The notes under the pieces: model-generated
Seen by the model: only the letters and a program-made list of their open reading frames with translations
Databases searched by the model: none
Told to the model about the DNA's origin: nothing
Assembly: GCA_963822335.1 (NCBI GenBank)
Contig: CAWGHE010000007.1
Coordinates: 741,464-805,463 of the forward strand
DNA from: an uncultured Actinomycetota bacterium
Lineage (GTDB): Bacteria > Actinomycetota > Actinomycetes > Mycobacteriales > Pseudonocardiaceae
Direction of reading: 5' to 3'
DNA: 64,000 nt
Shown: positions 2,728 to 20,031 of the stretch, one piece after another
Numbering within the stretch: position 1 is the stretch's first letter
How the letters are laid out: the number at the start of each line of letters is the position of its first letter
Position numbers and translations under genes: made by a program

Positions 2728-3630
2728 ATGAGCGACACCCCGGACCCCGCCCTGCGCCGTGCCCGGCTGCTGCCGCGGGCTGCGGTCTCCCGGCGCACGC
2801 TGCCGGTCGTGCGGGCCCTGATGCGGCTGGTCATGCGGCGTCCCGGCGCCGACTCCGTCGTGACGCTGCGTCATGGCGTCCGGGTGCACGTCTACCACCC
2901 GCCGGGTGCCGCGGACGGTCCCCGGCCGGCCCTGCTGTGGATCCACGGCGGGGGCTACGTGATCGGCTCGCCGACGCAGGACGACCCGCAGTGCCGCGAG
3001 ATCGCCGCGCGGCACGGTGCGCTCGTCGCGAGCGTCGACTACCGGCTGGCGCCCGAGCACCCGTTCCCGGTGCCGCTGGAGGACTGCTACGCCGCGCTCA
3101 CCTGGCTGGCCGCGCGCCACGACGTCGACGCGGGGCGGATCGCGATCGGTGGAGCGAGCGCCGGAGGCGGCCTCGCGGCGGCGCTGGCCCTGCTCGCCCG
3201 CGACCGCGGGGAGATCCGGCCCGTGCTGCAGCTGCTCAGCTACCCGATGGTCGACGACCGCACGACGCTGCGCGACGACCTCGACGAGAACCGCACGTAC
3301 CGGATGTGGAACCAGCGGAGCAACCGCTTCGGCTGGCGGAGCTACCTCGGGTCGGGATCGTCGGGCGACGTGCCTCCGCTCGCGGCTCCCGCCCGCGTCG
3401 AGGACCTGTCCGGCGTGGCGCCGGCCTGGATCGGTGTCGGCACCTACGACCTGTTCCACGACGAGGATCTCGCCTACGCCGAACGGCTGCGGGAGGCGGG
3501 CGTCGACTGCGCGGTGCACGTCTCGCCGGGCGCCTACCACGGCTTCGACGGCGTGGAGCCGGACGTGCCGGTGTCGCGAGCATTCACCGACGCCCGGCAC
3601 GCCGCGCTGGCGGCCGCCCTCCGGGAGTAG
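2728..3630 (+). CDS. Alpha/beta hydrolase, hormone-sensitive-lipase/esterase family
   Basis: ATG at 2728 inside ORF 1564..3630(+). Oxyanion motif WIHGGGYVIG, nucleophile elbow GGASAGG, C-terminal GAYHGF. Divergent from rmlB. Confidence 0.8.
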   Translation: MSDTPDPALRRARLLPRAAVSRRTLPVVRALMRLVMRRPGADSVVTLRHGVRVHVYHPPGAADGPRPALLWIHGGGYVIGSPTQDDPQCREIAARHGALVASVDYRLAPEHPFPVPLEDCYAALTWLAARHDVDAGRIAIGGASAGGGLAAALALLARDRGEIRPVLQLLSYPMVDDRTTLRDDLDENRTYRMWNQRSNRFGWRSYLGSGSSGDVPPLAAPARVEDLSGVAPAWIGVGTYDLFHDEDLAYAERLREAGVDCAVHVSPGAYHGFDGVEPDVPVSRAFTDARHAALAAALRE

Positions 3631-3664
3631 CTCTGAGCGCCGTTCGGACGCGGCTATCCGGGGC

Positions 3665-3691
3665 GGACAACGCCGCGCAGCAGATTTGTCC
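3665..3691. promoter_or_regulatory. Inverted repeat GGACAA-N15-TTGTCC, candidate operator upstream of the dikinase operon
   Basis: GGACAACGCCGCGCAGCAGATTTGTCC lies about 150 nt upstream of the ATG at 3828. The same half-sites with the same 15-nt spacing recur at 11433-11459 in the BMC promoter region. Confidence 0.5.
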
Positions 3692-3827
3692 TCACCACCC
3701 CTCGGCCGTGGGGGTCCCTCCGCGCGAGTGTGACCTACGCAACCCCGGCAGTCCTCGCCCCTCCCGGGCGGGCGTGCGCGCCGGCGCCGCGGCGACGCGG
3801 GACCACGAGTTCGAGGAGGAACGATCC

Positions 3828-4247
3828 ATGGGCGATGTGCTCGCCGAGGGCTACAACGTCTTCGACACCAAGAAGTCGCCGAGCGGGACGGTCAAGTACC
3901 TGGAGTCGCCGGCCGACGTCATCGGTCTGATCCAGTCCGGAAAGCTCGGGGAGCACATCCTGCTGGTGCGGGGCGGTACGACGACGTTCCTCGCCCCGGC
4001 GCTGTCGATGGGGTCCATCGGCGTGATCACGATGTCCGGGGCGCCGGAGTCGCACCTGGGCATCCTGTCGCGCGAGTTCCAGACGCCGTGCGTGATGACC
4101 GCGCACCTGACGTCGAGCGAGTCCCGCTACCTCGTCGGCTCGACCGACGAGTCGCACTTCGTCGAGATCGCCAAGGCGCTGGACGGGCGCAGGGTGCGGC
4201 TGGACTGCACCGACGACGAGACCGGCCGCGTCGTCGCGGACGACTGA
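3828..4247 (+). CDS. Stand-alone PEP-utilizing-enzyme mobile (swivel, phospho-His) domain protein, 139 aa
   Basis: RBS GAGGAGGA precedes the ATG at 3828. HILLVRGGTTTFLAPALSMGSIGVITMSGAPESHLGILSREFQTPCVMT aligns with the PpsA/PPDK swivel motif (...vlVt..t.P.w.p....a.giVT..GG.tsHaAIiaRE.GIPaV). There is no ATP-grasp or TIM-barrel domain in this ORF. Confidence 0.75.
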   Translation: MGDVLAEGYNVFDTKKSPSGTVKYLESPADVIGLIQSGKLGEHILLVRGGTTTFLAPALSMGSIGVITMSGAPESHLGILSREFQTPCVMTAHLTSSESRYLVGSTDESHFVEIAKALDGRRVRLDCTDDETGRVVADD

Positions 4248-4290
4248 GCTGCCCTCGACACACCGACCACCCGCCGAGCAGGGAGACGAC

Positions 4291-5726
4291 ATGACAGCGA
4301 CCGAGGGCAAGCGCGCGACGTACAAGGACCGCTACCGAGGAGGCCGACGACGGCCTGCGGTTCCAGGACCTCACCTACACCGGCAACTTCGTCGGCATGG
4401 AGCCCGTCACGGACGGGATCAAGGGCGACAAGATGATGAAGTCGCGCGCCAAGTCGGGCGTGCTGGAGAAGGTGTCCAAGGAGGACGTTCTCCGCGACCG
4501 GTTCACCATCGACGAGCTCAACGATCTGAACAACTACCTGGCCTGGAACATCTGGGACGTGCTGGTCATGCGCGCCACCGAGGGCGTCAGCGGCATGATC
4601 CCCCGCCAGGAGTACGAGATCCTGGCCTTCATGCACGAGTTCTACCGCTGGCCGGAGATCATGGCGCATGACCACGGAGGAGGTCGGCGGCGCCCAGGGG
4701 ATCATGGACATCGGTGCCACGGCCCGCCGGGAGATCGGCACCAAGGTCAACGCGGTGCACGACTGGTGCATCGGTGCGGTCGGCTTCGGCATGGGCCGCT
4801 GCGGACTGCTCGCCCTCGAGGTGATCAAGCCGGACGAGTACGTCGACGAGTCCAACGAGATCCTCAAGTTCATGCAGCGGGTGCTGTGGGGCAAGCGGCA
4901 GGACGGCTACATCCTCAACTCCCAGGACCGCTACCGCTGCCGCATCCACGAGCAGGACTTCCTGGACCAGATCGTCGCCCAGGTCGAGGAGCTGGAGCCG
5001 GACAGCCCCAAGCACCACACGTTCACCCAGTTCAACGCGGCCGCCGAGCTGCTGGCGTTCCTCGACCACTACGACTGCCGGCTCGGGCTCGGCGACACCG
5101 GCCCGTACGAGCTGCCGGACGGCAAGTTGCTGATCCTGCGCGACCTGTTCGTCAACGAGGAGGTCTTCCACTGGAGCGACGTCTGCGAGGACGCGAAGCT
5201 CCCGCACGTCTACTCGCTGGCCCTGATCATCGACCCGGAGAAGATGGGGCTCAACGAGATCCGGGTGAACGACATCTCCACCACGTTCACCCGCCCGAAG
5301 AACTACATCGACGCGATCGTCGGCGGCGCGGTGTTCGCCCGGGAGAAGTGGAACACCCCGATGGGCGAGGTCTACCCGATCAAGATCGACGACCTCGGTG
5401 ACCACATGGGACGCATCCAGCAGGCGACGCTGAAGCTGTACCAGAAGACGGCGAAGATGTGCCGTCGCGACCTGATCTGGAACGGCCAGTACGTCTACTA
5501 CATCGACATGATCCTCCCGCACATGCGGCTGGCCGGGACGTACGAGAAGGCCTGCCGCGACTACGACCTGTGGGAGATCGACCAGCGGGTCGCGAACTAC
5601 TACTACGACATCACCAAGCGCGGGTTCGCGCAGGAGACGGTGCCCAGCAAGATCTTCTCCGGGGCGGGATACCTGCCGTTCCCGGAGGGCGTGAGTCCGC
5701 GCCGGTCGAAGTACCGGGTGCTGTAA
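4291..5726 (+). CDS. Orphan protein of about 477 aa, unknown function; reading frame broken twice in this sequence (near 4330-4336 and 4660-4668)
   Basis: RBS GGGAGA plus ATG at 4291 (MTATEGKRATYKDRY). Coding continues in the +1 frame (TEEADDGLRFQDLTYTGNFVGMEPVTDGIKGDK...EFYRWPEIMA), then in the next +1 frame (MTTEEVGGAQGIMDIG...RRSKYRVL, stop at 5726). It is rich in K, D, Y, I and N relative to its neighbours. I recognise no family. Confidence 0.6.
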
Positions 5727-5738
5727 CCGTCCCCTTCT

Positions 5739-5777
5739 CCGGGCGGCGTGGCGTGGGGTGCGCGCCACGCCGCCCGG
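5739..5777 (+). terminator. Strong GC hairpin (15-bp perfect stem) between the orphan gene and the wHTH gene
   Basis: CCGGGCGGCGTGGCG (5739-5753), a 9-nt loop, then CGCCACGCCGCCCGG (5763-5777). No T-tract follows, as is usual in high-GC actinobacteria. Confidence 0.45.
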
Positions 5778-5803
5778 ACCTGTGCCCGAGCGGAGGCCTC
5801 GCT

Positions 5804-6412
5804 GTGCTGGACAAGACCGACTACGACGTGCTCAACGCCGTCGCGCTGAAGAAGATGGCCTCGGCCGGCGCCGTCGCCGAGACGACCGGGTTGCCCGAGT
5901 CCGACGTGAACGACGCGCTCGAGCGTCTGATCGGGCAGGGGCACGTCCTGGTGGCCGCGGGATCGGCGCTCCCCGCCGACTCCGCCGAGCCCGCCCTGCG
6001 CGAGGCCGCCGTCGAGCGCTACGCGGGGGTCCGGGAGGACGCGGGAGTCGCGGCACTCGTCGAGAAGTTCGAGACGGTCAACATGCAGTTCCTGTCCACG
6101 ATGTCGTCGTGGCAGCAGGTCGAGGTCGGCGGGAAGAAGGTCACCAACGACCATTCCGACCCGGACTACGACGAGAAGGTGATCGCGAGGCTGGACAAGC
6201 TCGTGCAGCGGCTGGCCCCGCTGCTCGATGCGCTCGCCGAGCACGACGCGCGCTTCGCCGGCTACACCCGCCGCTTCGCCGCGGCCCAGCAGGCCGTCGA
6301 CTCCGGGCGGCACGAGATGGTGTCCTCGCCGAGCGCGGACTCGGTGCACAACGTCTGGTTCGAGTTCCACGAGGACCTGCTGCGCACGCTGGGCCGGGAA
6401 CGCACCGAATGA
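5804..6412 (+). CDS. Hypothetical protein with an N-terminal winged-helix-like segment, 202 aa
   Basis: GTG at 5804 preceded by CGGAGG (5791-5796). VLDKTDYDVLNAVALKKMASAGAVAETTGLPESDVNDALERLIGQGHVLV looks MarR/wHTH-like; the C-terminal half is helical. High GC3 in this frame. Confidence 0.6.
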   Translation: MLDKTDYDVLNAVALKKMASAGAVAETTGLPESDVNDALERLIGQGHVLVAAGSALPADSAEPALREAAVERYAGVREDAGVAALVEKFETVNMQFLSTMSSWQQVEVGGKKVTNDHSDPDYDEKVIARLDKLVQRLAPLLDALAEHDARFAGYTRRFAAAQQAVDSGRHEMVSSPSADSVHNVWFEFHEDLLRTLGRERTE

Positions 6413-6419
6413 GCAGGCC

Positions 6420-8895
6420 ATGAGCGGTGTCGGCATCTCCCGTGTCCCCGCGCACACGTGGGCGTTCGCCGAGGCCGACGCGGCCGACGTCGCGCGGCTC
6501 GGCGGGAAGGGCGCCGGTCTGGCCCGGATGACGCAGCAGGGCCTGCGGGTGCCGCCGGGCTACGTCGTGGGCACCGAGGCGTGCCGGCGCTACCTCGCCG
6601 ACGGCCGCATGCCGGACGGGCTGGACGCCGAGATCGCGGCCCGTCTGGCGGATCTGGAGGCGGCGACCGGCAAGACGTTCGGCGCCGGCCCGCTGCCGCT
6701 GCTGCTGTCGGTCCGCTCCGGGGCGCCGGTCTCGATGCCCGGGATGATGGACACCGTCCTCAACCTCGGTCTGGGGCGTGACGCCGCGATCGCGATGGCC
6801 CGGGCCACCGGGGACTCCCGGTTCATGGCCGACCTGGTGGTCCGCTTCCACACGATGTACGCCGAGATCGTGCTCGGGGCGCTGGACCCGGGTGCGGACG
6901 TCGGGGACGTCGATCCCGGCGACGATCCCGGCGCCGCCTACGACCGGGTCTGGGCCACGTGCCAGCAGGCCCTCGCCGACGACGGCGACGACCCGGTCCC
7001 GGACGACCCGCGCGCCCAGCTGACCGGCGCCGTCGAGGCGGTGTTCCGGTCCTGGAACACCCGCCGCGCCCGCACCTACCGGGAGCACCACGGCATCGAC
7101 CATGCGATGGGGACCGCCGTCGTCGTGCAGTCGATGGTGTTCGGGAACCTCTCCGAGGACTCCGGGTCCGGTGTGGTGTTCACCCGCAACCCGGTCACCG
7201 GGGAGCCGGGGCTGTTCGGCGAGTATCTGGCGCACAGCCAGGGCGAGGACGTCGTCGCCGGCACCCGCACACCGGATCCGGTGACCGACGCGCTGCCGCC
7301 GGACCTGCTGACCGAGCTGCGCGCGGTCGGTGCGGACCTGGAGCGCTCGCACGGCGACGTGCTCGACATCGAGTTCACCGTGGAGCGGTCCACGCTGTAC
7401 CTGCTGCAGGTGCGCAGCGCGAAGCGCACGCCCGAGGCGGCAGTCCGGATCGCCTCCGATCTCCTCGACGAGAGCGCGGTCGGCGAGGCGGCCGCGCTGC
7501 GGGCCGTGACGTCGGCGCAGGTCCGCCACGTCCAGCGTCCGGGGTTCGACGACGACGAGGTCGCCCAGGCCCGGTCGTCCGGCCGGCTACTGACCGCCGG
7601 CATCGGGGCCTGCCCCGGCCAGGTGTCCGGGACCCTGGTGCTCGACCCGGACCGGGCCAAGGAGATCGCCGACGGTGGCACGCCGGTCGTGCTGGCCCGC
7701 TCGGTGACCAGCCCGGCCGACCTGCACGGCATGATCGCCGCGGCCGGGATCGTCACCGCCACCGGCGGCTCCACCAGCCACGCGGCCGTCGTCGCGCGGG
7801 CGCTGGGTACGACGTGCGTGGTCGGGGCCGGGGCACTGCGCATCGACGAGGGTGCGCGCTCGCTGCACGTCGGCGACCGGGTGCTCGCCGAGGGGGACGC
7901 GGTCTCGCTGGACGGCTCGACGGGCGAGCTGTTCGCCGGCACGTTCGCGACGGCGACCCCGGCCGCGGCGACCGACGCGCTCGCGTCGCTGCTCGGGACG
8001 GCGCGCCGGGTCTCCGGCTGTGAGGTGCTCGGCCGGGTCACGCTGCCCGCCGACGTCGAGCCGGTCCTGGCGTCCGGAGCGACCGGGCTGGTCACCGCCG
8101 TCGACGACGTCCTGGCCGCCACCGGACACCTCGACCTCCCTGGTGCACGGACTGCTGGAGGGCTCGGCCCGCGGACCGGACGAGCTGGCCGACCAGGTCG
8201 CGGCGGGGCTGACGCCGCTGCTCGCCGCGGCGGACGGGCGGGAGGTCGGGGTCCGTGCGATCGACCTGGTCGCCGACGAGGCCCGCGAGCTGCTGCAGCA
8301 GACCGCCGTCACCACCCGGCACCCGGAGCTGTCCGTGCCGCTCGGGCGACCGGAGCTGGTCCGGGCCCAGATCGACGGGCTCGCCCGCGCCGTGCGCGAG
8401 TCGGGGGGACGGGCGCACCTGGCGCTGCGGCACGTGTCCGACCCGGCCGAGGCCGCCGCGCTGCGCCCGCTGGCCGACGGGGCCGGGATCGGGATCGGGA
8501 CGTACCTGACCGCGCCCCGCGCCGTGCACGGGATCGAGGCGATCGCCGTCCACGGCGACGTGTGCTGGATCGAGCTGCGCACGCTGCAGGCGGCGATGAT
8601 CGGCCTGCCGCCGCGGCAGCTGTACACGGCCGAACCGCTGGACGGCTACCTCGCGCGTGGACTGTTCACACTGGACCCGCGGCGCACGCTCGACCCGACC
8701 GTGGCCGAGCTGCTGGCGCGCGCGGCCGCGACCCGGGACCGCCTGCCCGACTGCCGGATCGGCGTGCGGATGTCCGCCAGCGCCTCCGACGAGACGGTCA
8801 CGGCGCTGTACCGGATGGGATTCCGCCGATTCGCCGTGGATGCCGCCGGCAGCCGCCCGCTGCAGCTCGCGCTGGGGCAGGCCGCCGCCGGGTGA
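6420..8895 (+). CDS. Pyruvate,phosphate dikinase-like protein with a degenerate C-terminal domain; frame broken near 8138-8140
   Basis: N-terminal PPDK motifs: LGGKGAGLARM, LLSVRSGAPVSMPGMMDTVLNLGL, GSGVVFTRNPVTGE, DIEFTVERSTLYLLQVRSAKRT. Swivel motif: VTATGGSTSHAAVVARALGTTCVVG. After an extra C in the run at 8138-8140 the frame continues as LVHGLLEGSARGPDEL...LALGQAAAG (ORF 7852..8895). Confidence 0.8.
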
Positions 8896-9021
8896 TCAGC
8901 GGACGGGGCTGGGACCGTCGTCATCGGCCGGGCGGCCACGACCGTCGCCGGGGATCGACGGCCACGGACTGGTGGCCCGGCGACTCGGATCGGCGGCCGA
9001 CGCTGGTCGTGCCGACCGCGC

Positions 9022-9170
9022 GAACGTTCCGCTCAATGCTCGGTCCGGATCGGGCGGAACGTTGTGGTGGTCGGTGCCGGCGTCGGACGTTCCGCTCGAT
9101 CCTGGGCGCGCTGGTCGCGGCTGGAACGTCACTGGCGGTGGTGGCGCGGGACGTGTAGCTCGATCGACGG
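9022..9170. repeat. About 2.3 degenerate tandem copies of a ~64-nt unit in a convergent intergenic region
   Basis: GAACGTTCCGCTCAATGCTCGG...GGAACGTTGTGGTGGTCGG (9022-9085) is followed by GGACGTTCCGCTCGATCCTGGG...GGAACGTCACTGGCGGTGGTGG (9086-9150) and a partial third copy, GACGTGTAGCTCGATCGACGG. Confidence 0.5.
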
Positions 9171-9263
9171 TCGCACGGTCATGCCGGCCCGCGGTGGCGA
9201 GGTGCCGGGTCTCTACGGCGGGTGGCGGCACTGGCCCGGCAGGCACGGTGCAGCCCGCGAGGG

Positions 9264-10346
9264 TCAGGTCGCCGGTCGCAGATCCGGCCGCACGGCGGCG
9301 AGCAGCTCGGCGAGCGATCGGTCGGCGGGATCCGCCTCGGCGAGCGACCCGCCCGGCCGGCGGGTCGACGCTCGGGGGGCGAATCCGGGGGGGCCGGTGC
9401 GGACGGCGCATCGCCCGGTCACCGTCCTGCCACCGTGCCGCGGCGACGCGTCGCCGCCGCCGTCGCGCCGCTCGCCGCCATCGGCCGAGGCGTCGGCAGG
9501 CAGGGCGGAGGACACCGGCGCGCGGTGGACCGGCCCTGGGGACGGGCCCTGAGGAGACGGGCCTGGGGAGGCCGGCGCGGACGAGAGCGACACGGAGGAC
9601 GCCGGCGGAGCAGCGCAGGAGCCCGTCGCACACGCCTTGGTCGGCGGACCGGTGGCGTCGTCGCCGAGCAGGTACGCACCCACCTCCTGCGGCCACAGCG
9701 CGACGAACTCCGCGCCGGCCTCGGTGAGCTCGTCGGCCGAGTGCATCCCCCAGGCCACGCCGATCACCCGGATCCCGACCTCGCGGGCGTCGCGGACGTC
9801 GCCTGCGGTGTCGGTGACCAGCACGGTGCTGGACGGGCCGGGGGACAGCCGGCGGTTGCCCTCGTCGTAGTCGGCGGCGCAGCGGCGGCCGAAGCCGCTG
9901 CCCGCGTCGTCGAGGAACGCGCGGATCGCGGCCCGCTTGTCCGGCGCGACGTCGCCGCCGAACACGTGCGCGAAGCAGTACGCGATGTCGTTGTCCACCA
10001 GCACGCGTCGCAGCACGGCCATCGCGTTCGAGGACATCACGGCGAGCGTGCACTCCGAGGCCAGCCGCCGGACGACGTCCCGCATGCCCGGTACGAGCGG
10101 CGGCGAGTAGTCGCGGCGCAGCAGCGTCAGGAACTCCTGTTTGACCTCCTCGGCGTGCGCGTCGTCGCGGCAGCGCTCGGCCAGCGAGGCGAAGATGTTG
10201 CCGCGGAACAGCGCGAAGAACTCCTCCGGGGAGTCCACACCCAGCCCGTGCCGCCGGTTGACCTGCTCGAAGATCTCCCAGGACGCGATCCGGGTCTGGA
10301 CCAGCGTGCCGTCGAGATCGAAGACGACCGCACGCGTCGGATCCAT
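9264..10346 (-). CDS. HAD-superfamily hydrolase (phosphoglycolate-phosphatase-like) with a ~130-aa Pro/Ser/Ala-rich C-terminal tail
   Basis: Start ATG (complement 10344-10346) within ORF 9264..11285(-). MDPTRAVVFDLDGTLVQT (motif I DxDGT), AVMSSN (motif II), VLVTDTAGDVRDA (motif IV). The start overlaps the stop of the upstream gene (TGATG). Confidence 0.75.
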   Translation of the reverse strand: MDPTRAVVFDLDGTLVQTRIASWEIFEQVNRRHGLGVDSPEEFFALFRGNIFASLAERCRDDAHAEEVKQEFLTLLRRDYSPPLVPGMRDVVRRLASECTLAVMSSNAMAVLRRVLVDNDIAYCFAHVFGGDVAPDKRAAIRAFLDDAGSGFGRRCAADYDEGNRRLSPGPSSTVLVTDTAGDVRDAREVGIRVIGVAWGMHSADELTEAGAEFVALWPQEVGAYLLGDDATGPPTKACATGSCAAPPASSVSLSSAPASPGPSPQGPSPGPVHRAPVSSALPADASADGGERRDGGGDASPRHGGRTVTGRCAVRTGPPGFAPRASTRRPGGSLAEADPADRSLAELLAAVRPDLRPAT

Positions 10347-11338
10347 CACCCGAGCACGGCGTCCCAGATGGCGCCGAGCTCGCCGAGGCCGATGAAGTCC
10401 ATGCACTCGCCGAACCCGGTCCTCCCGTCCAGCGTCCAGCGGTGCAGGCAGTTGTGCCCGACGACGCCGGGCTGGGACTGCCACGGGAACGTGGTCAGGG
10501 CGTTGCCCTCCAGCTCGAACACGGTGTCCCGGGAGTCGGTGACCCGCACCCGGATCCGTTCCGGGTAGAGGCCCTTGCGGTCGGTGACGCCCTCGCCGGC
10601 CTTGAGCCCGTACAGCTGCCCGCCGTCGAGCACGTAGCCGTGCGTGAGGGACAGCGTCGTCGGCGCGTCCGGCCCGTTCTCCGGCTTGTAGTCGAACAGC
10701 CCGTGGAACACCGTCCCGTCCGGGAAGTGCGCGTGCATCCAGGACAGCCGCGACACCTGGCGTTCGGCCCGCACGCCCCAGCTGTGGTCCATCGTGGAGA
10801 TGCAGTCGATCGTCTCGGTCCGGCCGCGGATCGAGATCTCGCCCTCGAACCGTCCACTCTGGTCGAAGTGGCCGGCGTAGGCGTGCCCCCACGTCTTCGC
10901 CATGTCCTTGCCGGCGGCCATCGGGTCCTGGTCCGGGTCGTTGATGTCGTAGGCGTCGTGCAGCGCCGTGTAGCGGAAATGCAGCTCCAGCCCGGCCGCC
11001 GGGTCGGAGTAGTCGACGTCCCATACCCGGTTCGGGTCGCTGCAGTGCACCTTCAGTCCGTTCGCCAGCTCGTAGGAGACCAGGTTCGACGGCTGCGGCA
11101 CGACCAGGTGCTCCCAGGAGTCCCAGTACTCCGCCGCCCACGGCTCGCGCACGCGCCGGCTGTTCACCGAGACCGTCGATCCGACCACGCCGAGCGGCTC
11201 GCGGAACAGGCCGTACACGCCGACGTTCAGCGGGGCGGGACCGTCCTGGCCGGCGTAGAGGCCGAAGTAGTTGGTCTCCGCCCACAGCGGGTCGTCGCTG
11301 GTGGGGGCGTGGAACTGGGCGTCCTCGTCACGGATCAC
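10346..11338 (-). CDS. Conserved-looking hypothetical protein, 330 aa, unknown function
   Basis: GTG (complement 11336-11338) is preceded by GAGGAGGA at 5-nt spacing. VIRDEDAQFHAPTSDDPLWAETNYFGLYAG...STMDHSWGVRAERQ...HNCLHRWTLDGRTGFGECMDFIGLG. High GC3. Coupled to the HAD gene. Confidence 0.65.
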   Translation of the reverse strand: MIRDEDAQFHAPTSDDPLWAETNYFGLYAGQDGPAPLNVGVYGLFREPLGVVGSTVSVNSRRVREPWAAEYWDSWEHLVVPQPSNLVSYELANGLKVHCSDPNRVWDVDYSDPAAGLELHFRYTALHDAYDINDPDQDPMAAGKDMAKTWGHAYAGHFDQSGRFEGEISIRGRTETIDCISTMDHSWGVRAERQVSRLSWMHAHFPDGTVFHGLFDYKPENGPDAPTTLSLTHGYVLDGGQLYGLKAGEGVTDRKGLYPERIRVRVTDSRDTVFELEGNALTTFPWQSQPGVVGHNCLHRWTLDGRTGFGECMDFIGLGELGAIWDAVLG

Positions 11339-11432
11339 CGGGGTCCTCCTCGCGAGCGGCGGTGCGGGGCCTGGCGGACCGGCCCGCGCATCACCCTGCC
11401 CGCCGCCGGGGGGCGTGAACCAGCACACATCC

Positions 11433-11459
11433 GGACAGCGACCGGGCACGACGTTGTCC
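11433..11459. promoter_or_regulatory. Inverted repeat GGACAG-N15-TTGTCC in the divergent promoter region between the orphan/HAD operon and the BMC operon
   Basis: GGACAGCGACCGGGCACGACGTTGTCC. Same half-sites and same 27-nt span as 3665-3691. It lies about 90 nt upstream of the BMC-P start and about 108 nt upstream of the divergent gene start. Confidence 0.5.
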
Positions 11460-11536
11460 CGGCGGGATAAAGCCTCCGCCCGGCGCCCGCTCCTAGCGTG
11501 CTCGTCGAGCCCGACGGGTGTGGGAGGTGACCGGAC

Positions 11537-11836
11537 GTGCAGCTGGCAACGGTGCTCGGCCAGGTCGTCTCCACGGTCAAGGAGCCGGGGCTCGGCCGGT
11601 TCACGCTGCTGCTCGTGCGGGACACCGCCGACGGCGTCCCGGATTCCGACGACGACGGCGGGCCGGGATACGTGGCCGTCGACCTCGTCGGGGCCGGCGT
11701 CGGAGAGGTCGTGCTCGTCGCGTCCGGCGGCGCCGCGCGCGTCGCGGCCGGGGCGGACGCCCCGACCGACCGCGCCGTCGTCGCGATCGCCGACACCGTG
11801 ATCCGGACCGGCACGGTCACCTACCGCAAGACCTGA
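11537..11836 (+). CDS. BMC-P pentameric vertex shell protein (EutN/CcmL/PduN family)
   Basis: RBS GGGAGG (11522-11527) plus GTG at 11537. MQLATVLGQVVSTVKEPGLGRFTLLLVR...YVAVDLVGAGVGEVVLVASGGAAR...AVVAIADTV matches the EutN/CcmL pattern. Confidence 0.9.
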   Translation: MQLATVLGQVVSTVKEPGLGRFTLLLVRDTADGVPDSDDDGGPGYVAVDLVGAGVGEVVLVASGGAARVAAGADAPTDRAVVAIADTVIRTGTVTYRKT

Positions 11837-11851
11837 ACGAGGGAGGACGAC

Positions 11852-12190
11852 ATGGCTGCGACGCCGGGCGGTGCGCCCGCGACGGCGGCCCCCGCGGCAC
11901 CCGTGCTGCGCGGGGCGCTGGGGCTGATCGAGACGAAGGGGCTGGTCGGCGCGATCGAGGCCGCGGACGCGATGGTCAAGGCCGCGAACGTCCAGATCCT
12001 CGGCCACCGGGAGATCGGTGGCGGCCTGGTCACGGTCATGGTGCGTGGCGACGTCGGTGCCGTGAAGGCGGCGACCGACGCGGGCGCCGTCGCCGCGGGC
12101 AACGCAGGCGAGGTCGTCTCCGTGCACGTCATCCCGCGCCCGCACGACGAGACGGAGAGCATCCTCGCGGTCCTCACCCGCCCGAAGTGA
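11852..12190 (+). CDS. BMC-H hexameric shell protein (Pfam00936 type) with a 22-aa Ala/Pro-rich N-terminal extension
   Basis: RBS GGGAGGA plus ATG at 11852. [57 protein letters not shown]...[11 protein letters not shown] is the canonical PduA/EutM/CcmK-like sequence. Confidence 0.92.
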
Positions 12191-13577
12191 TGAGCACCCT
12201 CGACGAGGACCTGGCGTCGCTCGCCGAGGTCCGCCGCAAGGCTCGCGCGGCCCGCCGGGCGTTCGAGGCGGCCGACGGCGCCGACCAGGAGACCCTGGAC
12301 GGCTGGGTGCGCGCGATGGCGCTGGCCGGGACGAAGGCGGCCGAGGAGCTGGCCCGGCTCGCCGCGGACGAGACCGGCTACGGCGTCTACGAGCACAAGA
12401 TCTACAAGAACCGCTACAACACCGGGTTCGTCGCGCGCTGGATGCTCGAGCGGCGCGCGGTCGGTGTGCTGTGGGTCGACGAGGGGTCCCGGGTCACCGC
12501 CGTCGGCACGCCGATGGGGGTGATCGCCGGGATCATCCCGGTGACGAACCCGACGTCGACGGCGCTGTTCAAGAGCCTGGCCGCGGTGAAGTCCGGGAAC
12601 GCGATCGTGCACGCCCCGCACCCGCGGGCCGCGGCGTGCACGCACCGTGCGGCCGAGGTGATGGCCGAGGCCGCGACGAAGGCCGGTGCCCCGGAGGGCC
12701 TGGTCTCCTGCCTGGAGAGCCCGACGCTGCCGGCGACGGCGGAGCTGATGAGCCGCCCGGAGATCGCGCTCGTGCTCGCCACCGGCGGGCCGGGCATGGT
12801 GCGGGCCGCCTACTCCAGTCCGGGAAGCCGACGATCGCGGTCGGTGCCGGCAACGTCCCGGCCTACGTCGGCCGGAGCGTGCCGGACGCGGCCGAGGCCG
12901 CCGAAATGATCATCACGTCGAAGTCGTTCGACAACGGGACGGCGTGCGTGGCCGAGCAGTCGGTCGTCGTCGTCGAGGCGGTGGCGCACGAGTTCCTGGC
13001 GGCGTTCGAGTCCCGCGGCGCCTACTGGTGCAACGCCGCCCAGCAGGATGCGCTCGTCCGCGTGCTGTTCGACGAGCGCGGCGGGCTGCGCCCGGACGCC
13101 GTGGGCCAGACCGCGATCCGGCTGGCCGAGCTGGCCGGGTTCACCGTGCCGTCGACCACCCGGGTGCTCGCCGCCGAGCTGGACTCCGTCGGCCGGGGCA
13201 CCCCGCTGTCCCGCGAGATCCTCGGGCCGGTGCTGTCGGTCTACCGGGTCCGCGACGCCGATGCCGGCTACCGGCGCTGCCGGGAGATCCTGGCGCTCGA
13301 CGGCGAGGGGCACACGACGGCCGTGCACGCGTCCGACCCGGCGGAGATCGCCCGGTTCGGGCTCCTGCCGGCCGGCCGGATCGTGATCAACACGCCCGCG
13401 CTGTTCGGCGGCATGGGCTACTCCACCGACGTCGACCCGTCGTTCCAGCTCGGCACGGGAACCTGGAGCGGCTCGATCTGCTCGGACAACGTCACTCCGC
13501 TGCACTTGATCAACATCAAGCGGATCGCGCACGAGGTCCGCCCGTGGCGCAGCGTCTACGACACGGTCGAGCTGTAG
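12190..13577 (+). CDS. CoA-acylating aldehyde dehydrogenase (PduP/EutE-like); frame broken near 12817-12822
   Basis: The ATG overlaps the BMC-H stop (TGATG at 12188-12192). VGTPMGVIAGIIPVTNPTST, LATGGPGMVRAAYSS then (frame change) GKPTIAVGAGNVP, catalytic-Cys motif SFDNGTACVAEQS, HTTAVHASD. The two halves are ORFs 11518..12909 and 12471..13577. Confidence 0.88.
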
Positions 13578-13579
13578 TC

Positions 13580-14468
13580 GTGGCCACCGTGATCAGCGAT
13601 CCGGCAGCGCAGGCGGACAGATCTGTCCGCCGGCACTGCCGAACGGACGATCATCGAGGCGTGGCGCGGCTGCTCGGGGCCGGCGCGGCCGTGCTGTCCG
13701 GGACGTCGGTCCCCGGCAGCGCGGTCCGGACCCCGGTCCGGGTCGGCGTGGACCTGGGCACGGCCAGCTGCGTGCTCGTCGTGCTGGACGCCGCGGGCGA
13801 GCCGGTGTGGGTGGACGCGCATCCGTCCGGGGCGCTGGCCGACGGCGTGGTCGTCGACTTCGCCCGGGCGATCGCCACCGTGCGGGCGTTGAAGCAGCGT
13901 GCCGTCACGGCCCTCGGGACGGACGACTTTCCCCACGTGGCCACCGCCTACCCGCCGTGCATCCCGGTCGCCGACGCGCGGGCCTGCGCCTACGTGTGTG
14001 AGGCGGCCGGTTTCGGCGAGGTCGCGCTCGTCGACGAGGTGAGCGCCGCGCAGGCCGTCCTGGCGATCGACGACGGCGTCGTCGTCGACGTCGGAGGTGG
14101 TTCCACCGGGGTCGGGGTGTTCGTCGGCGGCGAGCTGGTCGCGCTGGACGACCGCGCCGGCGGCGGTCACCACCTGGACCTGGTGCTGGCCGGGGCGCTC
14201 GGCATCGGCGTCGCGGACGCGGAGCCGCGCAAACGCGAGCACCCCGACGAGTGCCTGCCGATCCTCGTCCCGGGGCTGCAGCGGATCGCCGAGTCGGTGC
14301 GCGCGATGACGACCGACCACCCCGGCCTGCCGCTGCACCTGGCCGGCGGAGCACTGATGATGCCCGGCGCGGACCGGGTGCTCGCCGACCTACCTGGAGC
14401 GATCTGTCGTGACCTACCCGCACGCCCTGCTGATCACGCCGCTCGGGATCGCGGGGTGCGCGACGTGA
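13580..14468 (+). CDS. EutJ-like actin/Hsp70-fold ATPase (BMC-associated chaperone-like protein); frame broken near 14387-14391
   Basis: VGVDLGTASCVLVVLD, VDVGGGSTGVGVF, AGGGHHLDLVLAG. After an extra C near 14389 the +1 frame gives YLERSVVTYPHALLITPLGIAGCAT-stop (TGA 14466-14468), the typical EutJ C-terminus. The start (GTG 13580 or 13589) is uncertain. Confidence 0.75.
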
Positions 14469-15094
14469 GCACGCCGACCCTGCGCACCTACGCGTTCATC
14501 GACCGGATGCAGCCGCAGTGCGCGGCGCACATCGCGGCGACCAGCCCGGGCGACGTGCCGCTCGCCGGCATGGCCGAGCTCTACATCGAGATGGCCCCGG
14601 GCAACGAGGTGTTCCGCGCTGCGGACATCGCGCTCAAGGCGGCCGGCGTGCGCCCGGCGTTGCAGATCATCGAGCGCGAGTTCGGGCTGCTGGAGATCCA
14701 CTCCGAGCAGCAGGCGGAGGTGCTGGCCTCCGGGGAGGCGGTGCTCGCCGAGCTGGGGATGTCCGAGTCCGACCGGATCCGCCCGTCGATCGCGTCGACG
14801 CAGTTCATCACGAACGTGCACCCGTACCAGGCGCAGCTGCTCAACAAGTGGCGCAAGGGATCCATGCTGATGCCCGGGCAGAGCCTGTTCGTCATGGAGG
14901 TCGCGCCCGCGGCCTACATCTCGATCGCCGCGAACGAGGCGGAGAAGGCCGCGGACATCACCGTGATCGAGCTGCGCGCGGTCGGCCGGTTCGGGCGGAT
15001 GTTCCTGTCCGGCACCGAGAGCGACGTGCAGGCCGCGCGGGACGCCGCCGTCGCCGCGCTGGAGGCCATCGACGGGCAGGAGCCGGGCCGATGA
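14465..15094 (+). CDS. BMC-T tandem-domain (pseudohexameric) shell protein, 209 aa
   Basis: The GTG overlaps the EutJ stop (GTGA at 14465-14468). Two BMC-like halves: LRTYAFIDRMQPQ...EVFRAADIALKAAGV...LLEIHSE and TQFITNVHP...AAYISIAANEAEKAADITVIELRAVGRFGRMFLSG. The ORF track fuses it with EutJ in the 716-aa ORF 12944..15094. Confidence 0.75.
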   Translation: MSTPTLRTYAFIDRMQPQCAAHIAATSPGDVPLAGMAELYIEMAPGNEVFRAADIALKAAGVRPALQIIEREFGLLEIHSEQQAEVLASGEAVLAELGMSESDRIRPSIASTQFITNVHPYQAQLLNKWRKGSMLMPGQSLFVMEVAPAAYISIAANEAEKAADITVIELRAVGRFGRMFLSGTESDVQAARDAAVAALEAIDGQEPGR

Positions 15095-16447
15095 CCGTCT
15101 GGTCGGTCGCCGACGTCGAGGCTGCTGCGGCGGGGTCGCGCACCGTGCACGTCAGTGCCCGGGACGTCGTCACCCCGCTGGCCCGGGAACGCGCCCGCGA
15201 GCTGGACGTGACCATCGATGTCGTCGACGGGGCCGCGACCGTGCCCGGGGCCGCGCGGCGCAACAGTGCCGCGCGAGCGGAGCGCTCGTCCGGCGTGCCG
15301 GCGGGCCTCGGCGGTGCGCGGCACTCCGGTCCGGGTGCACGAGCGGAGCGCTCGTCCAACGGGGCCGTGCGAGCGGAGCGCTCGTCCAACGGGGCCGCGC
15401 GGGCGAGCCGCTCGTCCGACCCGAGTGTGGCTCCACCACCGGTGCGACCCCCGTCCGGCGCTCTGTTCCGCCGCGGCGCCCCCCTCCCGGCCGGGCTCGG
15501 GGTGGTGCGAGCGGGGCGGACCGGCCGCGTGGCCGTCGTCGGCGCCGGACACGTCGGCATGATCACCGCGATGCGGCTGGCCGAGGCCGACGTGTTCGAC
15601 GAGGTCGTGCTCGTCGACATCGACGCCGGGCGCGCGGCCGGCGTCGCGCTGGACCTGACGCACACGGCGCCGCTCGCCGGGTTCGCCACCCGGGTGCGCG
15701 GCGTCGGCACCGTGGAGGGGGCGGGCTCCTGCGACTATGCCGTGATCACCGCCGGTCGCCCGCGGCAGCCCGGGATGAGCCGCAGCGACCTGATCGGCAC
15801 GAACGCCGCGATCGTCGGGGACGTCGCGTCCACGCTGGCCGCGACGTCGCCGCACGTCGTCCTCGTCGTCGTGACGAACCCGCTGGACGAGATGACCCAC
15901 CACGCGTGGCGGGCGTCCGGGCTGCCCGCCGAGCCGGGTGATCGGGATGGCCGGGGTGCTGGACACGGCCCGCTTCCAGGCGCTGGCGTCGCTGACCGGG
16001 GCGGTGCGGGCCGACCGGATCGACGCCGTCGCGCTCGGCAGCCACGGCGAGGAGATGGTCGTCCCGCTCTCGCAGGCCGCGGCGGGCGGGCGCCCGCTCG
16101 CCGAGACCGTCGACGGGTTGGACGCGATCGTCGACCGGACCCGCGGCTCCGGCGCCGAGGTCGTCGGGCTGCTGTCGTCCGGGAGCGCGTTCCTGGCGCC
16201 CGGCATGTCCGCGGCGCGGATGGTGCTGGCGATGGCCGCGGACTCCGGCGAGACGATGCCGGCCGCCGTGCTCGCCGACGGGCAGTACGGTATTCGCGAC
16301 GTCTACATCGGACTGCCGGTACGGCTCGGGCGCGACGGCGTCCGCGAGATCGTCGAGATCTCGCTGGCCCCCGACGAGCTCGCCGCCCTGCGCACCGCCG
16401 CCGACCGCATCGCCGAGCGGCTCGCCGACCTCGCTCCGGCCCGGTGA
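15091..16447 (+). CDS. LDH-like malate dehydrogenase-type enzyme with a ~140-aa N-terminal extension; frame broken near 15934-15937
   Basis: The ATG overlaps the BMC-T stop (ATGA at 15091-15094). Dehydrogenase core: VAVVGAGHVGMITAMRLA, ITAGRPRQPGMSRSDL (Arg at the MDH-specificity position), VVTNPLDEMTH, then after an extra C VIGMAGVLDTARF and LGSHGEEMVVPLS. N-terminus: MTVWSVADVEAAAAG...SARDVVTPLARERARELDVTIDVV plus a repeat linker. Confidence 0.8.
15271..15420 (+). repeat. Short in-frame tandem repeats (ARAERSS(N)G units) forming the low-complexity linker of the MDH N-terminal extension
   Basis: GAGCGGAGCGCTCGTCC occurs at 15275-15291, 15341-15357 and 15371-15387, with a degenerate copy at 15401-15417. 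It encodes ARAERSSG...ARAERSSNGAVRAERSSNGAARASRSS. Confidence 0.7.
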
Positions 16448-16451
16448 CCCG

Positions 16452-17487
16452 GTGCGGGCCGTGCTGTACGCCGGTGACGGGCGGGTGAGCGTGGAGCCCG
16501 TCACCGAGCCGGAGATCGCGGAGCCGACGGACGCGATCGTCCGCGTCCGCCGGGCCGCCGTCTGCGGCACCGACCTGCATGCCGTCGCCCACCCGGACGG
16601 GCTGCCCCGCGGCACGATCCTCGGGCACGAGTTCGTAGGCGAGATCGTCGAGACCGGGCCCGCGGTCGTCGGGCACCGGGTCGGCGACGTCGTCGTCGGC
16701 GCGGACTACACGGCCTGCGGGCGGTGCTGGTGGTGCCGGCGCGGTGATCACTGGGAGTGCGCCGAGCGCCGCTTCTTCGGCACCGGGACCGCGTTCGGGC
16801 CTGCGCTGGCCGGATCACAGGCCGAACTGGTGCGCGTGCCGCACGCGGACACCGTGCTCGTGGGCGTGCCCGATGACGTCGACCTGGACACGGCCGTGTT
16901 CCTCGGGCGACACGCTCGCCACCGGGTACGCCGCCGTGCAGCGTGCGGGGCTGCGGCCCGGGGACACGCTCGCCGTCGTGGGTGGCGGTCCGGTCGGTCA
17001 GCTGGTCAGCCTCGCCGCGCAGGCGCTCGGTGCCGGCGTCGTGGTGCTGGTGGAGCCGGTCGATGCCCGGCGGACGCTGGCCGCGGCGGAGGGTGCTGTC
17101 GTCGCGGACCCGGACCGGAGCCGCGACGTCGTCGACCGGGTGACCGACGCCCGCGGCGCCGACGCCGTCGTCGACGCGATCGGCGGCCCGGCCGGACTGG
17201 ACACGGCGTTCGGACTGGTCCGCCGGCGGGGCACGGTCGTGTCGGTCGGCGTGCACACCGCCGCGGAGTGGCCGCTGCCGGTCGCTCGGGCGTTCGCGGA
17301 GGAGCTGACGGTGCGGTTCGCGGTCGGCGACCTGATGCGCGATGCCCCTGATCTGGTCGGTCTCGTCCGTTCGGGTGCGATCGACCCGGCGGTCGTCGCA
17401 TCGGAGCGGATCGGTCTGGACGAGGCGCCCGAGGCATATCGGAAGATGGCCGAGCGCCATACCCTCAAGTCACTGCTCGTGATCTGA
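16452..17487 (+). CDS. Zn-dependent alcohol dehydrogenase (MDR family); frame broken near 16905-16907
   Basis: GTG at 16452. AAVCGTDLH, GHEFVGEIVETG, structural-Zn CGRCWWCRRGDHWEC. After an extra G in the GGG run the frame continues as GDTLATGYAAVQRAG...VVGGGPVGQL...HTLKSLLVI. The halves are ORFs 16452..17351 and 16744..17487. Confidence 0.85.
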
Positions 17488-17508
17488 CCAGCACGAGAGA
17501 GGTAAGCG

Positions 17509-19632
17509 ATGGCGCCATCCGAGCTCGGGACCGCCCTGATGACGGCCGTCGGGACCGGTGGGCTGACACGCCTGCTGCAGACCCGCCCGGACGACCCCCT
17601 CTCCGCTGCCGAGGCACTGGCCGCGGCCGCAGGACGCGAGATCGGTGTCCCGGTCCAGGTGCTCACCGACGACGGGTGGGTGCTGGCCGGCGTGCCATGG
17701 CTCAGCGACGGCGGGGACCGTGTCGACGCCGCGGGGGTCACCGTGCGGTGGTCCGGGGCGACGCGGGCGGTGCCGGCCGACCTGCTGCGCCAGGCGTGCG
17801 TGTGGCTGTCGCTGCTGCGCGAGCGCGCGGCCGCCCGCGAGGAGCTCACGTCGGCCGGTGCCGAGGCCGACTCGATCCGCGACGTCGTCGGGCGCCTGCT
17901 GTCGGTGCGCGACGCGGACCAGGTGCTCCTGTCGGTGGCCGACTGGGTGCTGCGGCTCCTCGACGCGGACATCTGCGGGGTCCTGCTGCGCGAGGGCGAC
18001 GAGGTCCGGATGCGGTCCTGTGTCGGCCACCGCGCCGTCGAGACCTCGCGGCTGCGGATGAAGCGCGGCCAGGGCGTCGCCGGGCTGGTGTTCCTCACCG
18101 GCGAGCCGGCGAAGGTCGACTCCTACCTCGAGGACCGCACGATCAGCCAGGACTTCATGTTCCTGGCCGAGAAGGAGCAGACGTGCTCCGCGCTCGCCGT
18201 GCCGCTGCGCCTGCAGGGCGAGCTGGTCGGCGTACTCGAGGTGTGGCGCCGTCGCGAGTCCGTGTTCACCGCTCGCGACGTCCAGCGGATGGTCACGCTC
18301 GCCGACTTCGCGACGATCGCGATCGACAACGCCCGCCTGCACGACGTGCAGCTGCAGGCCATGGAGAGCGCCGAGCAGGCGCGCGACGCGCTGGCCCGGC
18401 AGATGACCGTGCTGGACCGCGCGGCGCAGCTGCAACAGACGTTGCTCTCGACGGTGGTGCAGGGCGGCGGCCTCGCCGCGATCGCCCGGACCGTGGCCGT
18501 CGATCTCGGCTGCGAGGTGGGCGTCTACGGCCCGGACGGCGGGCGACTCGCCGCGCACTCCGGTCCGCGGCTGGCCAGCACGCTGCCCGAGTCCCTGACG
18601 GCGTCCGGCACCCGCGCCGGGCCCCGGTCCGGCCGGTGGGTCCGGCCGGTGCACGCCGACGGCGACCGCGTCGGTCAGGTCTGCCTGCTGCAGGGCGACC
18701 AGCCCGCCGAGACGATGGACGCCGTGGCCGGGCACGTCGCGATGGCCTGTTCGCTCGCGCTGCTGCGGGAGCGGGCGGCCAGCCGGGCGCGCTCCGAGGC
18801 GATGGAGCAGGTGCTCTGGGACCTGCTGCAGGGCCCGGTCGAGCACCGGCTTGCCGCGCGCACCCGCGCCCAGCAGCTGTCCGTCCCGCTCGGCGGCGCG
18901 CTGCGGGTGGTCTACGGGCAGATCGAGAACATCGGCCGGCTCGCGGCCGAGCAGGGATGGGAGACCGCGCAGTCCGACCGTGTGCGGCGCGACGTGCTGC
19001 GCGCGGTCCGGTGCGCGGACGGCGGCCGCGCGCCGTCGCTCGCCGGCCTGCGCGGGGACTTCCTCGTCGCGATCGCGGCCGACCTCGACCGGGGCGGGGC
19101 ACGTGAGCTCGTCACGGCCGTCTCGGCGGCCGTGCGCGAGCAGTCCGGTGTCCGCCTGAGCTGGGGCGTCAGCCGGGAGCACACCGACGTCGTCGAGCTG
19201 CCGAGCGCGTTGAACGAGGCGCAGACCGCACTGTCCGCGGCGCACCGCCTCGGCGGGGAGAACGTGTTCCTCTACGAGGAGCTCGGGATCGTCCGGCTGC
19301 TGCTGGGTTCCGGGAGCGACCCGGACCTGCAGACGTTCGTCGACGAGGTCACCGGGCCGTTGCTGGCCTACGACAGGGACAACGACGGCTCCCTGATCCG
19401 GACCCTGCGCGCGTTCTTCGACGCCGACTGCTCGCAGCGCGTCGCCGCGGAGCGGTTGTTCGTGCACCACAAGACGTTGCGCTACCGCCTGGACCGGATC
19501 CGCAGGTTGACCGGCCTGGACCTGTCGCGGCACGAGGACCGGATGCGGGCGGACTTCGCCCTGCGGTTGCTGCAGGTCAACCGGTGCGATCCGGAGATGA
19601 CCCACGGCGACGGGCTCACGCGGGAGGAGTGA
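17509..19632 (+). CDS. PucR/CdaR-family transcriptional regulator with a GAF domain, 707 aa
   Basis: ORF 17509..19632(+). GAF-like block: [35 protein letters not shown]...[14 protein letters not shown]...[22 protein letters not shown]-terminal PucR HTH: [44 protein letters not shown]. Confidence 0.85.
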
Positions 19633-19915: not shown

Positions 19916-20005
19916 CGCACGTCCCTCCGCCGGTCGTGGATCGACGGTAGCTCCGCGAGCGGCGCCGTCGCGATGTCCGCGGTGGATAGTCCGGGGCGCG
20001 CTCCG

Positions 20006-20027: not shown

Positions 20028-20031
20028 GGGG

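Follow-up and report, generated by a model that had tools for sequence, protein, structure and literature searches.

What controls the expression of a MIC1-type microcompartment, and how far does the set of genes under that control extend? The question is raised by a 64,000-nt stretch of DNA from an uncultured member of the Pseudonocardiaceae (contig CAWGHE010000007.1 of assembly GCA_963822335.1, positions 741,464 to 805,463; hereafter the window), which carries a bacterial microcompartment (BMC) operon, a divergent operon encoding a DUF7064 protein and a HAD phosphatase, and an operon encoding a dikinase. A first-pass annotation of the window described the same inverted repeat in two places, ahead of the dikinase operon and in the divergent region between the other two operons, and suggested that it is a shared operator uniting all three in one regulon. 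Phylogenetic footprinting supports both the shared operator and the single regulon, in which the gene first described as an orphan is that for the DUF7064 protein. We consider it probable that a 38-bp operator lying before every transcription unit is bound by the cluster's own GAF-PucR regulator, acting as a ligand-dependent activator.

Operator sites in the window

Both inverted repeats were located where they had been reported: GGACAACGCCGCGCAGCAGATTTGTCC at 3665-3691, with 136 nt from its end to the ATG at 3828, and GGACAGCGACCGGGCACGACGTTGTCC at 11433-11459, inside the 198-nt divergent region 11339-11536. The 27-bp two-box repeat described initially is real, but the full site is 38 bp long and consists of three boxes, the third of which had been overlooked (CTATCC at 3654-3659 in site 1 and GGATAA at 11465-11470 in site 2). 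Site 1 (3654-3691, plus strand) is made up of box A (CTATCC, 3654-3659), five nucleotides (N5), box B (GGACAA, 3665-3670), a further 15 (N15), and box C (TTGTCC, 3686-3691), and is oriented toward the dikinase operon. Site 2 (11433-11470, minus strand) reads TTATCC-N5-GGACAA-N15-CTGTCC, its boxes appearing on the plus strand as GGACAG (11433-11438), TTGTCC (11454-11459), and GGATAA (11465-11470). It is common to the divergent DUF7064-HAD and BMC promoters, and has the same orientation relative to the DUF7064-HAD operon as site 1 has relative to the dikinase operon.

The first-pass annotation found no third copy of the repeat in the window. There is one, in degenerate form, upstream of a lone BMC-H gene at 19616-19915. 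This site 3 (19973-20011, minus strand) comprises GGACAG (20011-20006), N16, CTATCC (19989-19984), N5, and GGACAT (19978-19973). It escaped the earlier search pattern because of its 16-nt spacer and variant boxes, and fixed-spacer and flexible-spacer scans also missed it on account of the spacer. With sites 1-3 taken together, all four transcription units of the conserved gene block carry the operator. Adjoining site 3, at 20006-20027 on the minus strand, is an extra palindrome of the same half-sites, CTGTCC-N10-GGACAG, which is not present in the closest relative (locus L081).

Together, boxes A and B make up a 17-bp palindrome whose halves have their centres 11 bp apart, an arrangement that fits a PucR-type inverted repeat of 17-24 bp. 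From comparison of the sites, we take this palindrome, YTRTCC-N5-GGAYAR, to be the operator core. The 27-bp repeat recognised earlier would then be one half of the core together with an auxiliary half-site, box C, that is found in actinobacterial clusters. No fourth box was found as a partner of box C; the conserved TCCATCGG or GCNCTGG at the corresponding place is unlike the half-site.

Conservation and specificity of the operator

Inspection of the regions upstream of orthologous operons, a check suggested in the first-pass annotation, revealed the operator at the orthologous promoters of about 20 clusters from three actinobacterial orders, some of them from soil metagenomes. Orthologous loci were reached via homologues of the DUF7064 protein (a contig search with the dikinase as the query returned only generic pyruvate-phosphate dikinases of 40-50% identity, with no synteny). 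They comprise the loci of Pseudonocardia kongjuensis, P. alni, P. thermophila, P. abyssalis, P. benzenivorans, and P. phyllosphaerae, as well as those of Amycolatopsis rubida, Actinomycetospora sp., Rhodococcus sp. T7, Ornithinicoccus hortensis, and one 90%-identical metagenome contig. The site is present in the DUF7064-BMC divergent region of 12/12 related actinobacterial loci examined, and upstream of the dikinase operon the three boxes occur at the same spacing in all nine of the loci where that region is readable. Wherever it can be read, the geometry in both intergenic regions is invariant: YTRTCC-N5-GGACAA-N15-YTRTCY.

In total, the window and 22 loci, metagenome contigs included, yielded 40 sites (37 distinct) with the consensus YTRTCC-N5-GGACAAC-N14-TTGTCC. 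Information per column, calculated over 19 sites, is 1.62 bits in the boxes compared with 0.35 in the spacers. Conservation extends to the boxes, the intervals between them, and their distance from -10-like hexamers, but not to the sequence of the spacers. The lone BMC-H gene is likewise preceded by the operator in other clusters. A position weight matrix (PWM) scan identified a canonical N15 site upstream of this gene in L084, L086, L087, and L091, and weaker sites in L089, L090, and L093. The only deviation from the N5/N15 spacing among the recovered sites is the N16 third site of the window's own lineage, L081 having the same spacer.

A more distant cluster, in Paraburkholderia terrae (58% G+C; locus L214, 7056-21002), contains the enzyme module without any shell gene. 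Here a GAF-PucR gene is divergent from genes for DUF7064, HAD, the swivel protein, a 472-aa protein, a 191-aa protein, the dikinase, an alcohol dehydrogenase, and an aldehyde dehydrogenase, in that order. The 17-bp palindrome is present in both intergenic regions, as TTATCT-CCGAG-GGATAA at 9469-9485 and TTATCC-GCGAG-CGATAA at 11761-11777. The second of these is followed by TTATCT 17 nt further on, compared with 15 in actinobacteria. Since P. terrae keeps the A-B palindrome, it is this part of the site that constitutes the conserved core.

The operator is also specific to the cluster. A PWM scan of the 64-kb window and nine 21-kb loci gave matches at the expected promoter positions only, and the same scan of 30 random windows gave none. 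A scan of public metagenomes for the exact three-box pattern returned 80 loci, 12 of them on contigs with a G+C content of at least 0.69. Cluster genes are found at the match in 11 of these 12; in the twelfth, L103, the match is at the contig edge and no cluster genes are seen, so it is uninformative. The remaining 68 contigs have 28-66% G+C and look like chance matches. One of the metagenome contigs, L140 (54% G+C), has an exact three-box match (CTTGTCC-AATGC-GGACAA-N15-TTGTCC, 6462-6499) that lies 15 bp past the stop codon of a canonical PucR/GGDEF_2/HTH_30 gene (region 5218-6499) and precedes a terminator-like hairpin. A GGACAA box also lies ahead of the start of that gene. The L140 match may be due to chance, or may hint that this type of helix-turn-helix (HTH) reads TTGTCC-like half-sites.

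The first-pass annotation had argued that the repeat was very unlikely to recur by chance within 64 kb. That argument is unsound, as the pattern was chosen post hoc. In the window (71.4% G+C) the exact pattern occurs twice and in 100 shuffles not at all, and GGACA-N17-TGTCC with one mismatch has 2 matches against 2.83 expected. A look-elsewhere test was run on a crude non-coding fraction of about 12 kb, considering all inverted repeats with 6-bp arms and spacers of 0-30 that share 11/12 positions, weighted by base composition. This fraction contains 276 pairs of inverted repeats with the same arm and the same spacer, and a pair at least as informative as the one reported arises in 146/200 random sequence sets. 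Judged by these comparisons, the repeats exceed chance only through their conservation in other genomes.

Could the repeats nevertheless be a coincidence, or a DNA or RNA hairpin (a terminator or attenuator) in place of a protein-binding site? The arms could pair in principle, and the pair does not stand out on the window alone. Against this, boxes of fixed geometry recur across three orders and the core palindrome reaches a proteobacterium. Box B is nearly invariant (GGACAA) and box C is variable (TTGTCC, CTGTCC, CTATCC, or TTGTCT); complementarity is perfect in 25/37 B-C pairs and in 3/37 A-B pairs, and no compensatory changes between boxes were seen among the 37 distinct sites. The boxes are conserved individually and their complementarity is not kept, which argues for recognition of each half-site by a protein and against a hairpin. 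Any hairpin would have a mere 6-bp stem and a non-conserved loop of 15 nt, and site 2 sits between divergent promoters. The idea of an RNA element was rejected, with no Rfam family found over 3000-21000, no terminator-like site in either region, and no compensatory change. We regard coincidence or a hairpin as extremely improbable and, in our view, the comparative data already refute both.

Promoter geometry

A -10-like hexamer is found at a fixed distance from the operator at each of the four putative promoters. At the dikinase operon it is GAGTGT (3726-3731, plus strand), 34 nt after box C; in relatives the hexamer here is CACTGT, followed by GAC, and conserved blocks lie around it (CCCCTCGG at 3698-3705 and CGCAAC at 3738-3743). 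At the putative DUF7064-HAD promoter it is CAGGGT (11393-11398, minus strand), also 34 nt from box C. The putative BMC-operon promoter has TAGCGT (11494-11499, plus strand), 23 nt after box A, which is TACTGT in most relatives, and that of the lone BMC-H gene has TACCGT (19944-19949, minus strand), 23 nt after the proximal box. Over the whole set, an NAnnnT hexamer lies 33-34 nt after box C at 28/37 distinct sites (the dikinase promoter has CACTGT, the DUF7064 promoter GAGCGT or CAGGGT), and a TAnnnT hexamer (TACTGT, TAGCGT, or TACCGT) lies 22-23 nt beyond box A at 25/36. The background for such hexamers in the same flanks is 0.014 per offset.

If these hexamers are -10 elements, the operator would be located at about -83 to -36, a position typical of activators. 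Boxes would then fall at about -72 to -67 and -51 to -46 in both types of promoter, with the third box at about -83 to -78 at the enzyme operons and at about -40 to -35 at the shell promoters. In that geometry, with spacings of 11, 21, and 10-11 bp, all boxes would lie on one face of the helix. Neither the dikinase nor the divergent region contains a sigma-70-consensus promoter, as expected for activator-dependent promoters. The possibility that TTGTCC itself is a -35 element was rejected, there being no -10 element 16-18 nt downstream.

Candidate regulators

Two regulators encoded in the cluster had been put forward as possible binders: the GAF-PucR protein and a winged helix-turn-helix (wHTH) protein of 206 aa. 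On the evidence of their sequences, the former appears to fit better. The gene for the PucR-family (HTH_30) protein lies beside the operator and occurs in every related cluster. Within its product, conservation peaks in HTH_30, with a column identity of 0.92 compared with 0.53-0.83 elsewhere. The near-invariant HTH segment is kept as VHQKTVRYRL in Paraburkholderia, where overall identity is 38%, alongside the 17-bp palindrome. The NCBIfam models nearest to the protein are CdaR, AdeR, and PmfR, the last two being named activators. Members of the PucR family are mostly activators; they assemble as dimers, tetramers, or octamers in which the recognition helices are separated by about one helical turn, and their operators are 17-24-bp inverted repeats immediately upstream of the -35 element (PMC7652997; PMC13599513; PMC11617747).

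In O. hortensis (L093, 1707-3947), the PucR orthologue loses its frame within HTH_30, so that no HTH_30 is called, and the operator sites are intact. The loss of frame is either an assembly error or the mark of a recently inactivated regulator.

We propose that the operator YTRTCC-N5-GGACAA-N15-YTRTCC, preceding the dikinase, DUF7064-HAD(-phosphatase), and MIC1 operons and the lone BMC-H gene, would be bound by the GAF-GGDEF_2-PucR protein as a dimer or tetramer. Box C would act as an auxiliary half-site two helical turns beyond the A-B palindrome core. Bound regulator would bring about ligand-dependent activation from about -83 to -36 relative to weak promoters. The operator is asymmetric: the enzyme operons lie on the box-C side, where the palindrome would be distal, and the shell-gene promoters lie on the box-A side, where it would abut the -35 region. 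The PucR gene, last in the BMC operon, would be induced by its own product, and such positive autoregulation is suggested by its position 21 nt behind the alcohol dehydrogenase gene.

Several observations weigh against this model. The pair of repeats is not significant on the window alone, the -10 assignments rest solely on conservation and position, and at the shell promoters the palindrome, at about -51 to -35, is equally compatible with repression. The genes for PucR and the 206-aa wHTH protein co-occur in every cluster found, the shell-less one included; as both are always present (in Rhodococcus, Ornithinicoccus, and Paraburkholderia too), co-occurrence cannot separate the candidates. The 206-aa protein also has a confidently predicted wHTH fold. 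Its AlphaFold model (pLDDT 95) has an N-terminal winged helix at residues 4-57, with helices at 4-16, 21-28, and 32-44 and a wing at 48-57, and a helical C-terminal domain. A Foldseek search with the model gave mostly wHTH regulators (GntR/FCD VanR, PadR, IclR, and MarR), all as weak matches with E-values of at least 0.025. Pfam matches to TrmB (22.1 against a gathering threshold of 25.6) and MarR_2 (21.8 against 27) are both sub-threshold, and some database sources name the protein a MarR-family regulator. A 17-bp palindrome is of typical size for a wHTH dimer and would also suit one of the MarR or GntR type. Moreover, site 1 lies ahead of the protein's own operon, making autoregulation possible.

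These points allow for an alternative in which the 206-aa protein binds the operator as a MarR/GntR-like ligand-responsive repressor, either alone or with PucR on different boxes. We consider this unlikely. Helices 2 and 3, its putative DNA-reading part, are where a conserved recognition helix suited to DNA would be expected, yet they are the least conserved parts of the protein (column identities of 0.50 and 0.60, compared with 0.82 in the C-terminal domain) and are acidic, with many Asp, Glu, and Ala residues and few of Arg, Lys, Ser, and Thr, which is hard to square with near-invariant boxes. No NCBIfam model matches the protein, and no solved structure is related to it. At its own promoter the palindrome would lie at about -83 to -67, where a repressor would be badly placed. 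Finally, the gene abuts that of the dikinase: the two overlap by 4 nt in several relatives and are 2 nt apart in P. alni. This close abutment suggests that the 206-aa protein may be an enzyme subunit.

A regulator from outside the cluster might also bind the boxes, for example a global factor, a factor responding to nutrients, or the HisKA_3 two-component system at 1-1640. This system adjoins the cluster in the window, and the specificity scans of the source genome covered the window, which leaves room for a larger regulon. However, each genome has different genes flanking the cluster, whereas the boxes and the two internal regulator genes are retained throughout, and in metagenome DNA of high GC content the pattern hardly occurs outside the cluster. 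The neighbouring two-component system was rejected as the regulator for lack of conservation of the flanks. To our knowledge, the boxes are unlike the well-known actinobacterial operators (GlnR, PhoP, CRP/GlxR, DosR, AmtR, and LexA). Control by an outside regulator seems to us more doubtful still than control by the 206-aa protein, and the GAF-PucR protein remains the preferred binder.

The gene cluster and the MIC1 microcompartment

Which genes does the operator bring together? The dikinase operon (3828-8895, plus strand) was delimited using Pfam, NCBIfam, tblastn with intact P. alni orthologues, and conserved gene order. It encodes a phosphoenolpyruvate (PEP)-utilizers swivel protein of 139 aa (3828-4247), a 477-aa protein of no assigned family (4291-5726), the wHTH protein of the 206-aa family (5804-6412), and a pyruvate-phosphate dikinase (PPDK)-like dikinase (6420 to about 8895), all on the plus strand. 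In the dikinase, similarity to pyruvate-phosphate dikinase covers the N-terminal 600 residues of the latter; the protein also matches the short PRK05878 model, and its C-terminal region is different. Reading leftward from the divergent region, the minus-strand operon 9264-11338 contains the genes for the DUF7064/DUF7065 protein (10346-11338) and the HAD phosphatase (9264-10349).

On the other side of the divergent region is the MIC1-type microcompartment operon (11537-17487, plus strand). It begins with the gene for BMC-P (EutN), whose start is at 11537, and also encodes BMC-H, an aldehyde dehydrogenase, an MreB/actin-like protein, BMC-T (CsoS1D-like), an Ldh/Mdh-like dehydrogenase, and a Zn-dependent alcohol dehydrogenase. 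The gene for the GAF-GGDEF_2-HTH_30 (PucR-family) regulator follows the alcohol dehydrogenase gene after 21 nt (17509-19632, plus strand) and is convergent with the lone, or satellite, BMC-H shell gene (19616-19915, minus strand).

The order of this block is conserved: lone BMC-H comes first, then PucR, alcohol dehydrogenase, Ldh-like dehydrogenase, BMC-T, actin-like protein, aldehyde dehydrogenase, BMC-H, and BMC-P on one strand, with DUF7064, HAD, and usually a Y_phosphatase3 gene divergent from them. The dikinase operon comes next in relatives (139-aa swivel, 477-aa, and 206-aa proteins and a dikinase of about 830 aa), and the flanks beyond are variable. The Y_phosphatase3 gene, which lies between the HAD and dikinase genes in most relatives, is absent from the window (8896-9263), L081, and L091. 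The window and L081 belong to the 202-aa lineage, which has the N16 third site and is without this gene. In Rhodococcus (L092), a SurE-type phosphatase replaces Y_phosphatase3 and the dikinase operon has been relocated beside the PucR gene. Pseudonocardia endophytica encodes two paralogues of the 206-aa protein (P0124 and P0127; 82% and 71% identical to that of the window) on one 3.5-Mb contig, an indication that the dikinase module, or the entire cluster, is present twice.

Compared with their intact P. alni orthologues, five of the cluster's enzyme genes are interrupted by frameshifts in the window: those for the 477-aa protein (two frameshifts, near 4340 and 4664), the dikinase (about 8135-8179), the aldehyde dehydrogenase (12187-13577; about 12813), the Ldh-like dehydrogenase (15091-16447; about 15930), and the alcohol dehydrogenase (16452-17487; about 16907). 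The genes encoding the regulator, the shell proteins, DUF7064, and the 206-aa protein are all intact. Either the assembly contains indel errors or the cluster is decaying. Similar gene splitting is seen in a second P. benzenivorans assembly (L088) relative to L087.

The Pfam content, the orthologous loci, and the published description all identify the locus as MIC1, and the orthologous locus of P. thermophila DSM 43832 is labelled MIC1 in the 2021 catalogue (PMC8217296). MIC1 has been catalogued since 2014 without a known substrate, signature enzyme, or phosphotransacylase (PMC4207490; PMC8217296). The window shares with the described type its BMC-H and BMC-P proteins, BMC-T, the aldehyde dehydrogenase, the Ldh-like and Zn alcohol dehydrogenases, the MreB-like protein, a hydrolase, a phosphatase, and the lack of a phosphotransacylase (PMC4207490; PMC8217296). 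Unlike the present analysis, the two catalogues name no regulator, operator, or dikinase (PMC4207490; PMC8217296), and the regulon that we propose extends beyond the locus as catalogued. The terms 'PucR' and 'dikinase' are absent from the main texts of both (PMC4207490; PMC8217296), and PucR, pfam13556, and pfam01326 do not occur in the supplements of the 2021 catalogue (PMC8217296). We found no literature on the regulation of MIC1.

The shared operator is new evidence that the dikinase operon belongs to the MIC1 system. Being common to the shell operon, the lone shell gene, and two enzyme operons, it would place the dikinase, DUF7064, and phosphatase genes in one pathway and make their products candidate MIC1 signature enzymes. 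A broader reading, which as a whole we offer tentatively, is that the operator marks the true extent of MIC1 and that the dikinase complex is the long-missing signature enzyme system. The complex would consist of a PPDK-like enzyme without the usual PEP/pyruvate domain, together with the separate swivel, 477-aa, and 206-aa proteins, and would work with DUF7064 and the phosphatases. One GAF-PucR sensor would drive shell and enzyme promoters through two geometries of the three-box site, and the shell-less Paraburkholderia cluster would represent the same pathway without a compartment.

The predicted regulon and its operator are new and the kind of system is familiar; they are of use because they bring the function of MIC1 within reach of experiment. 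The operator supplies a promoter-reporter and a candidate GAF sensor for use in screening for the presumed inducer, and hence the substrate, and Paraburkholderia provides a natural shell-less comparator. The proposed site would also give the poorly characterised PucR family a defined binding architecture.

Elsewhere in the window, a second inverted repeat, T(C/T)GACA-N4-TGTCGA, recurs at 39141-39159 and 42399-42418 and is more informative than the operator pair. The first copy is about 15 nt ahead of an alpha/beta-hydrolase gene (ATG at 39173). The second is just upstream of a gene for an AMP-binding (acyl-CoA synthetase-like) protein (42452), directly after a TetR-family gene (41615-42355). 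This repeat is probably the operator of that TetR protein.

Comparison with known regulatory systems

The closest known system is that of GabR from Corynebacterium glutamicum, which is likewise an actinobacterial PucR-type activator encoded beside its targets (PMC7652997). GabR binds multi-part inverted repeats at about -87 to -23, directly upstream of the -35 element in the divergent gabR-gabT region. It forms an octamer, both sites are needed for strong binding, and its autoregulation is apparently positive (PMC7652997). Unlike the MIC1 regulator, GabR has no GAF or GGDEF-like domain, and its two 21-bp repeats are of unrelated sequence. It has one target promoter, as opposed to four here, and is not linked to a microcompartment; binding in the present system is a prediction.

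Other PucR-family sites include the 17-bp repeat of PutR/PrcR and the 24-bp repeat of AdeR in Bacillus subtilis, and the 24-bp motif of IppR in Rhodococcus. In MabR from Mycobacterium tuberculosis, a C-domain dimer holds the HTH recognition helices about 34 A apart (PMC7652997; PMC13599513; PMC11617747). This distance fits the 11-bp spacing between the centres of boxes A and B, and tetramers could reach box C. The sensor of MabR is globin-like, in contrast to the GAF domain here, and the DNA sequences of the PutR/PrcR, AdeR, IppR, and MabR sites differ from the operator. An arrangement of three half-sites at 5/15 spacing that serves differently arranged promoters on its two sides was not found in the PucR-family papers examined.

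Among microcompartment systems, EutR is encoded by the last gene of the Salmonella eut operon and is positively autoregulated, while PocR is the regulator for pdu. RMM1 has a GntR-type regulator (PMC4207490). In each case, as proposed for MIC1, a substrate-sensing regulator encoded at the locus switches on shell and enzyme genes together, and the likeness to EutR extends to the regulator gene being last in the operon that it would activate. The MIC1 system would differ from all three in using a GAF-PucR protein instead of one from the AraC or GntR family, and in a predicted regulon that also joins two neighbouring operons without shell genes to the genes of the compartment.

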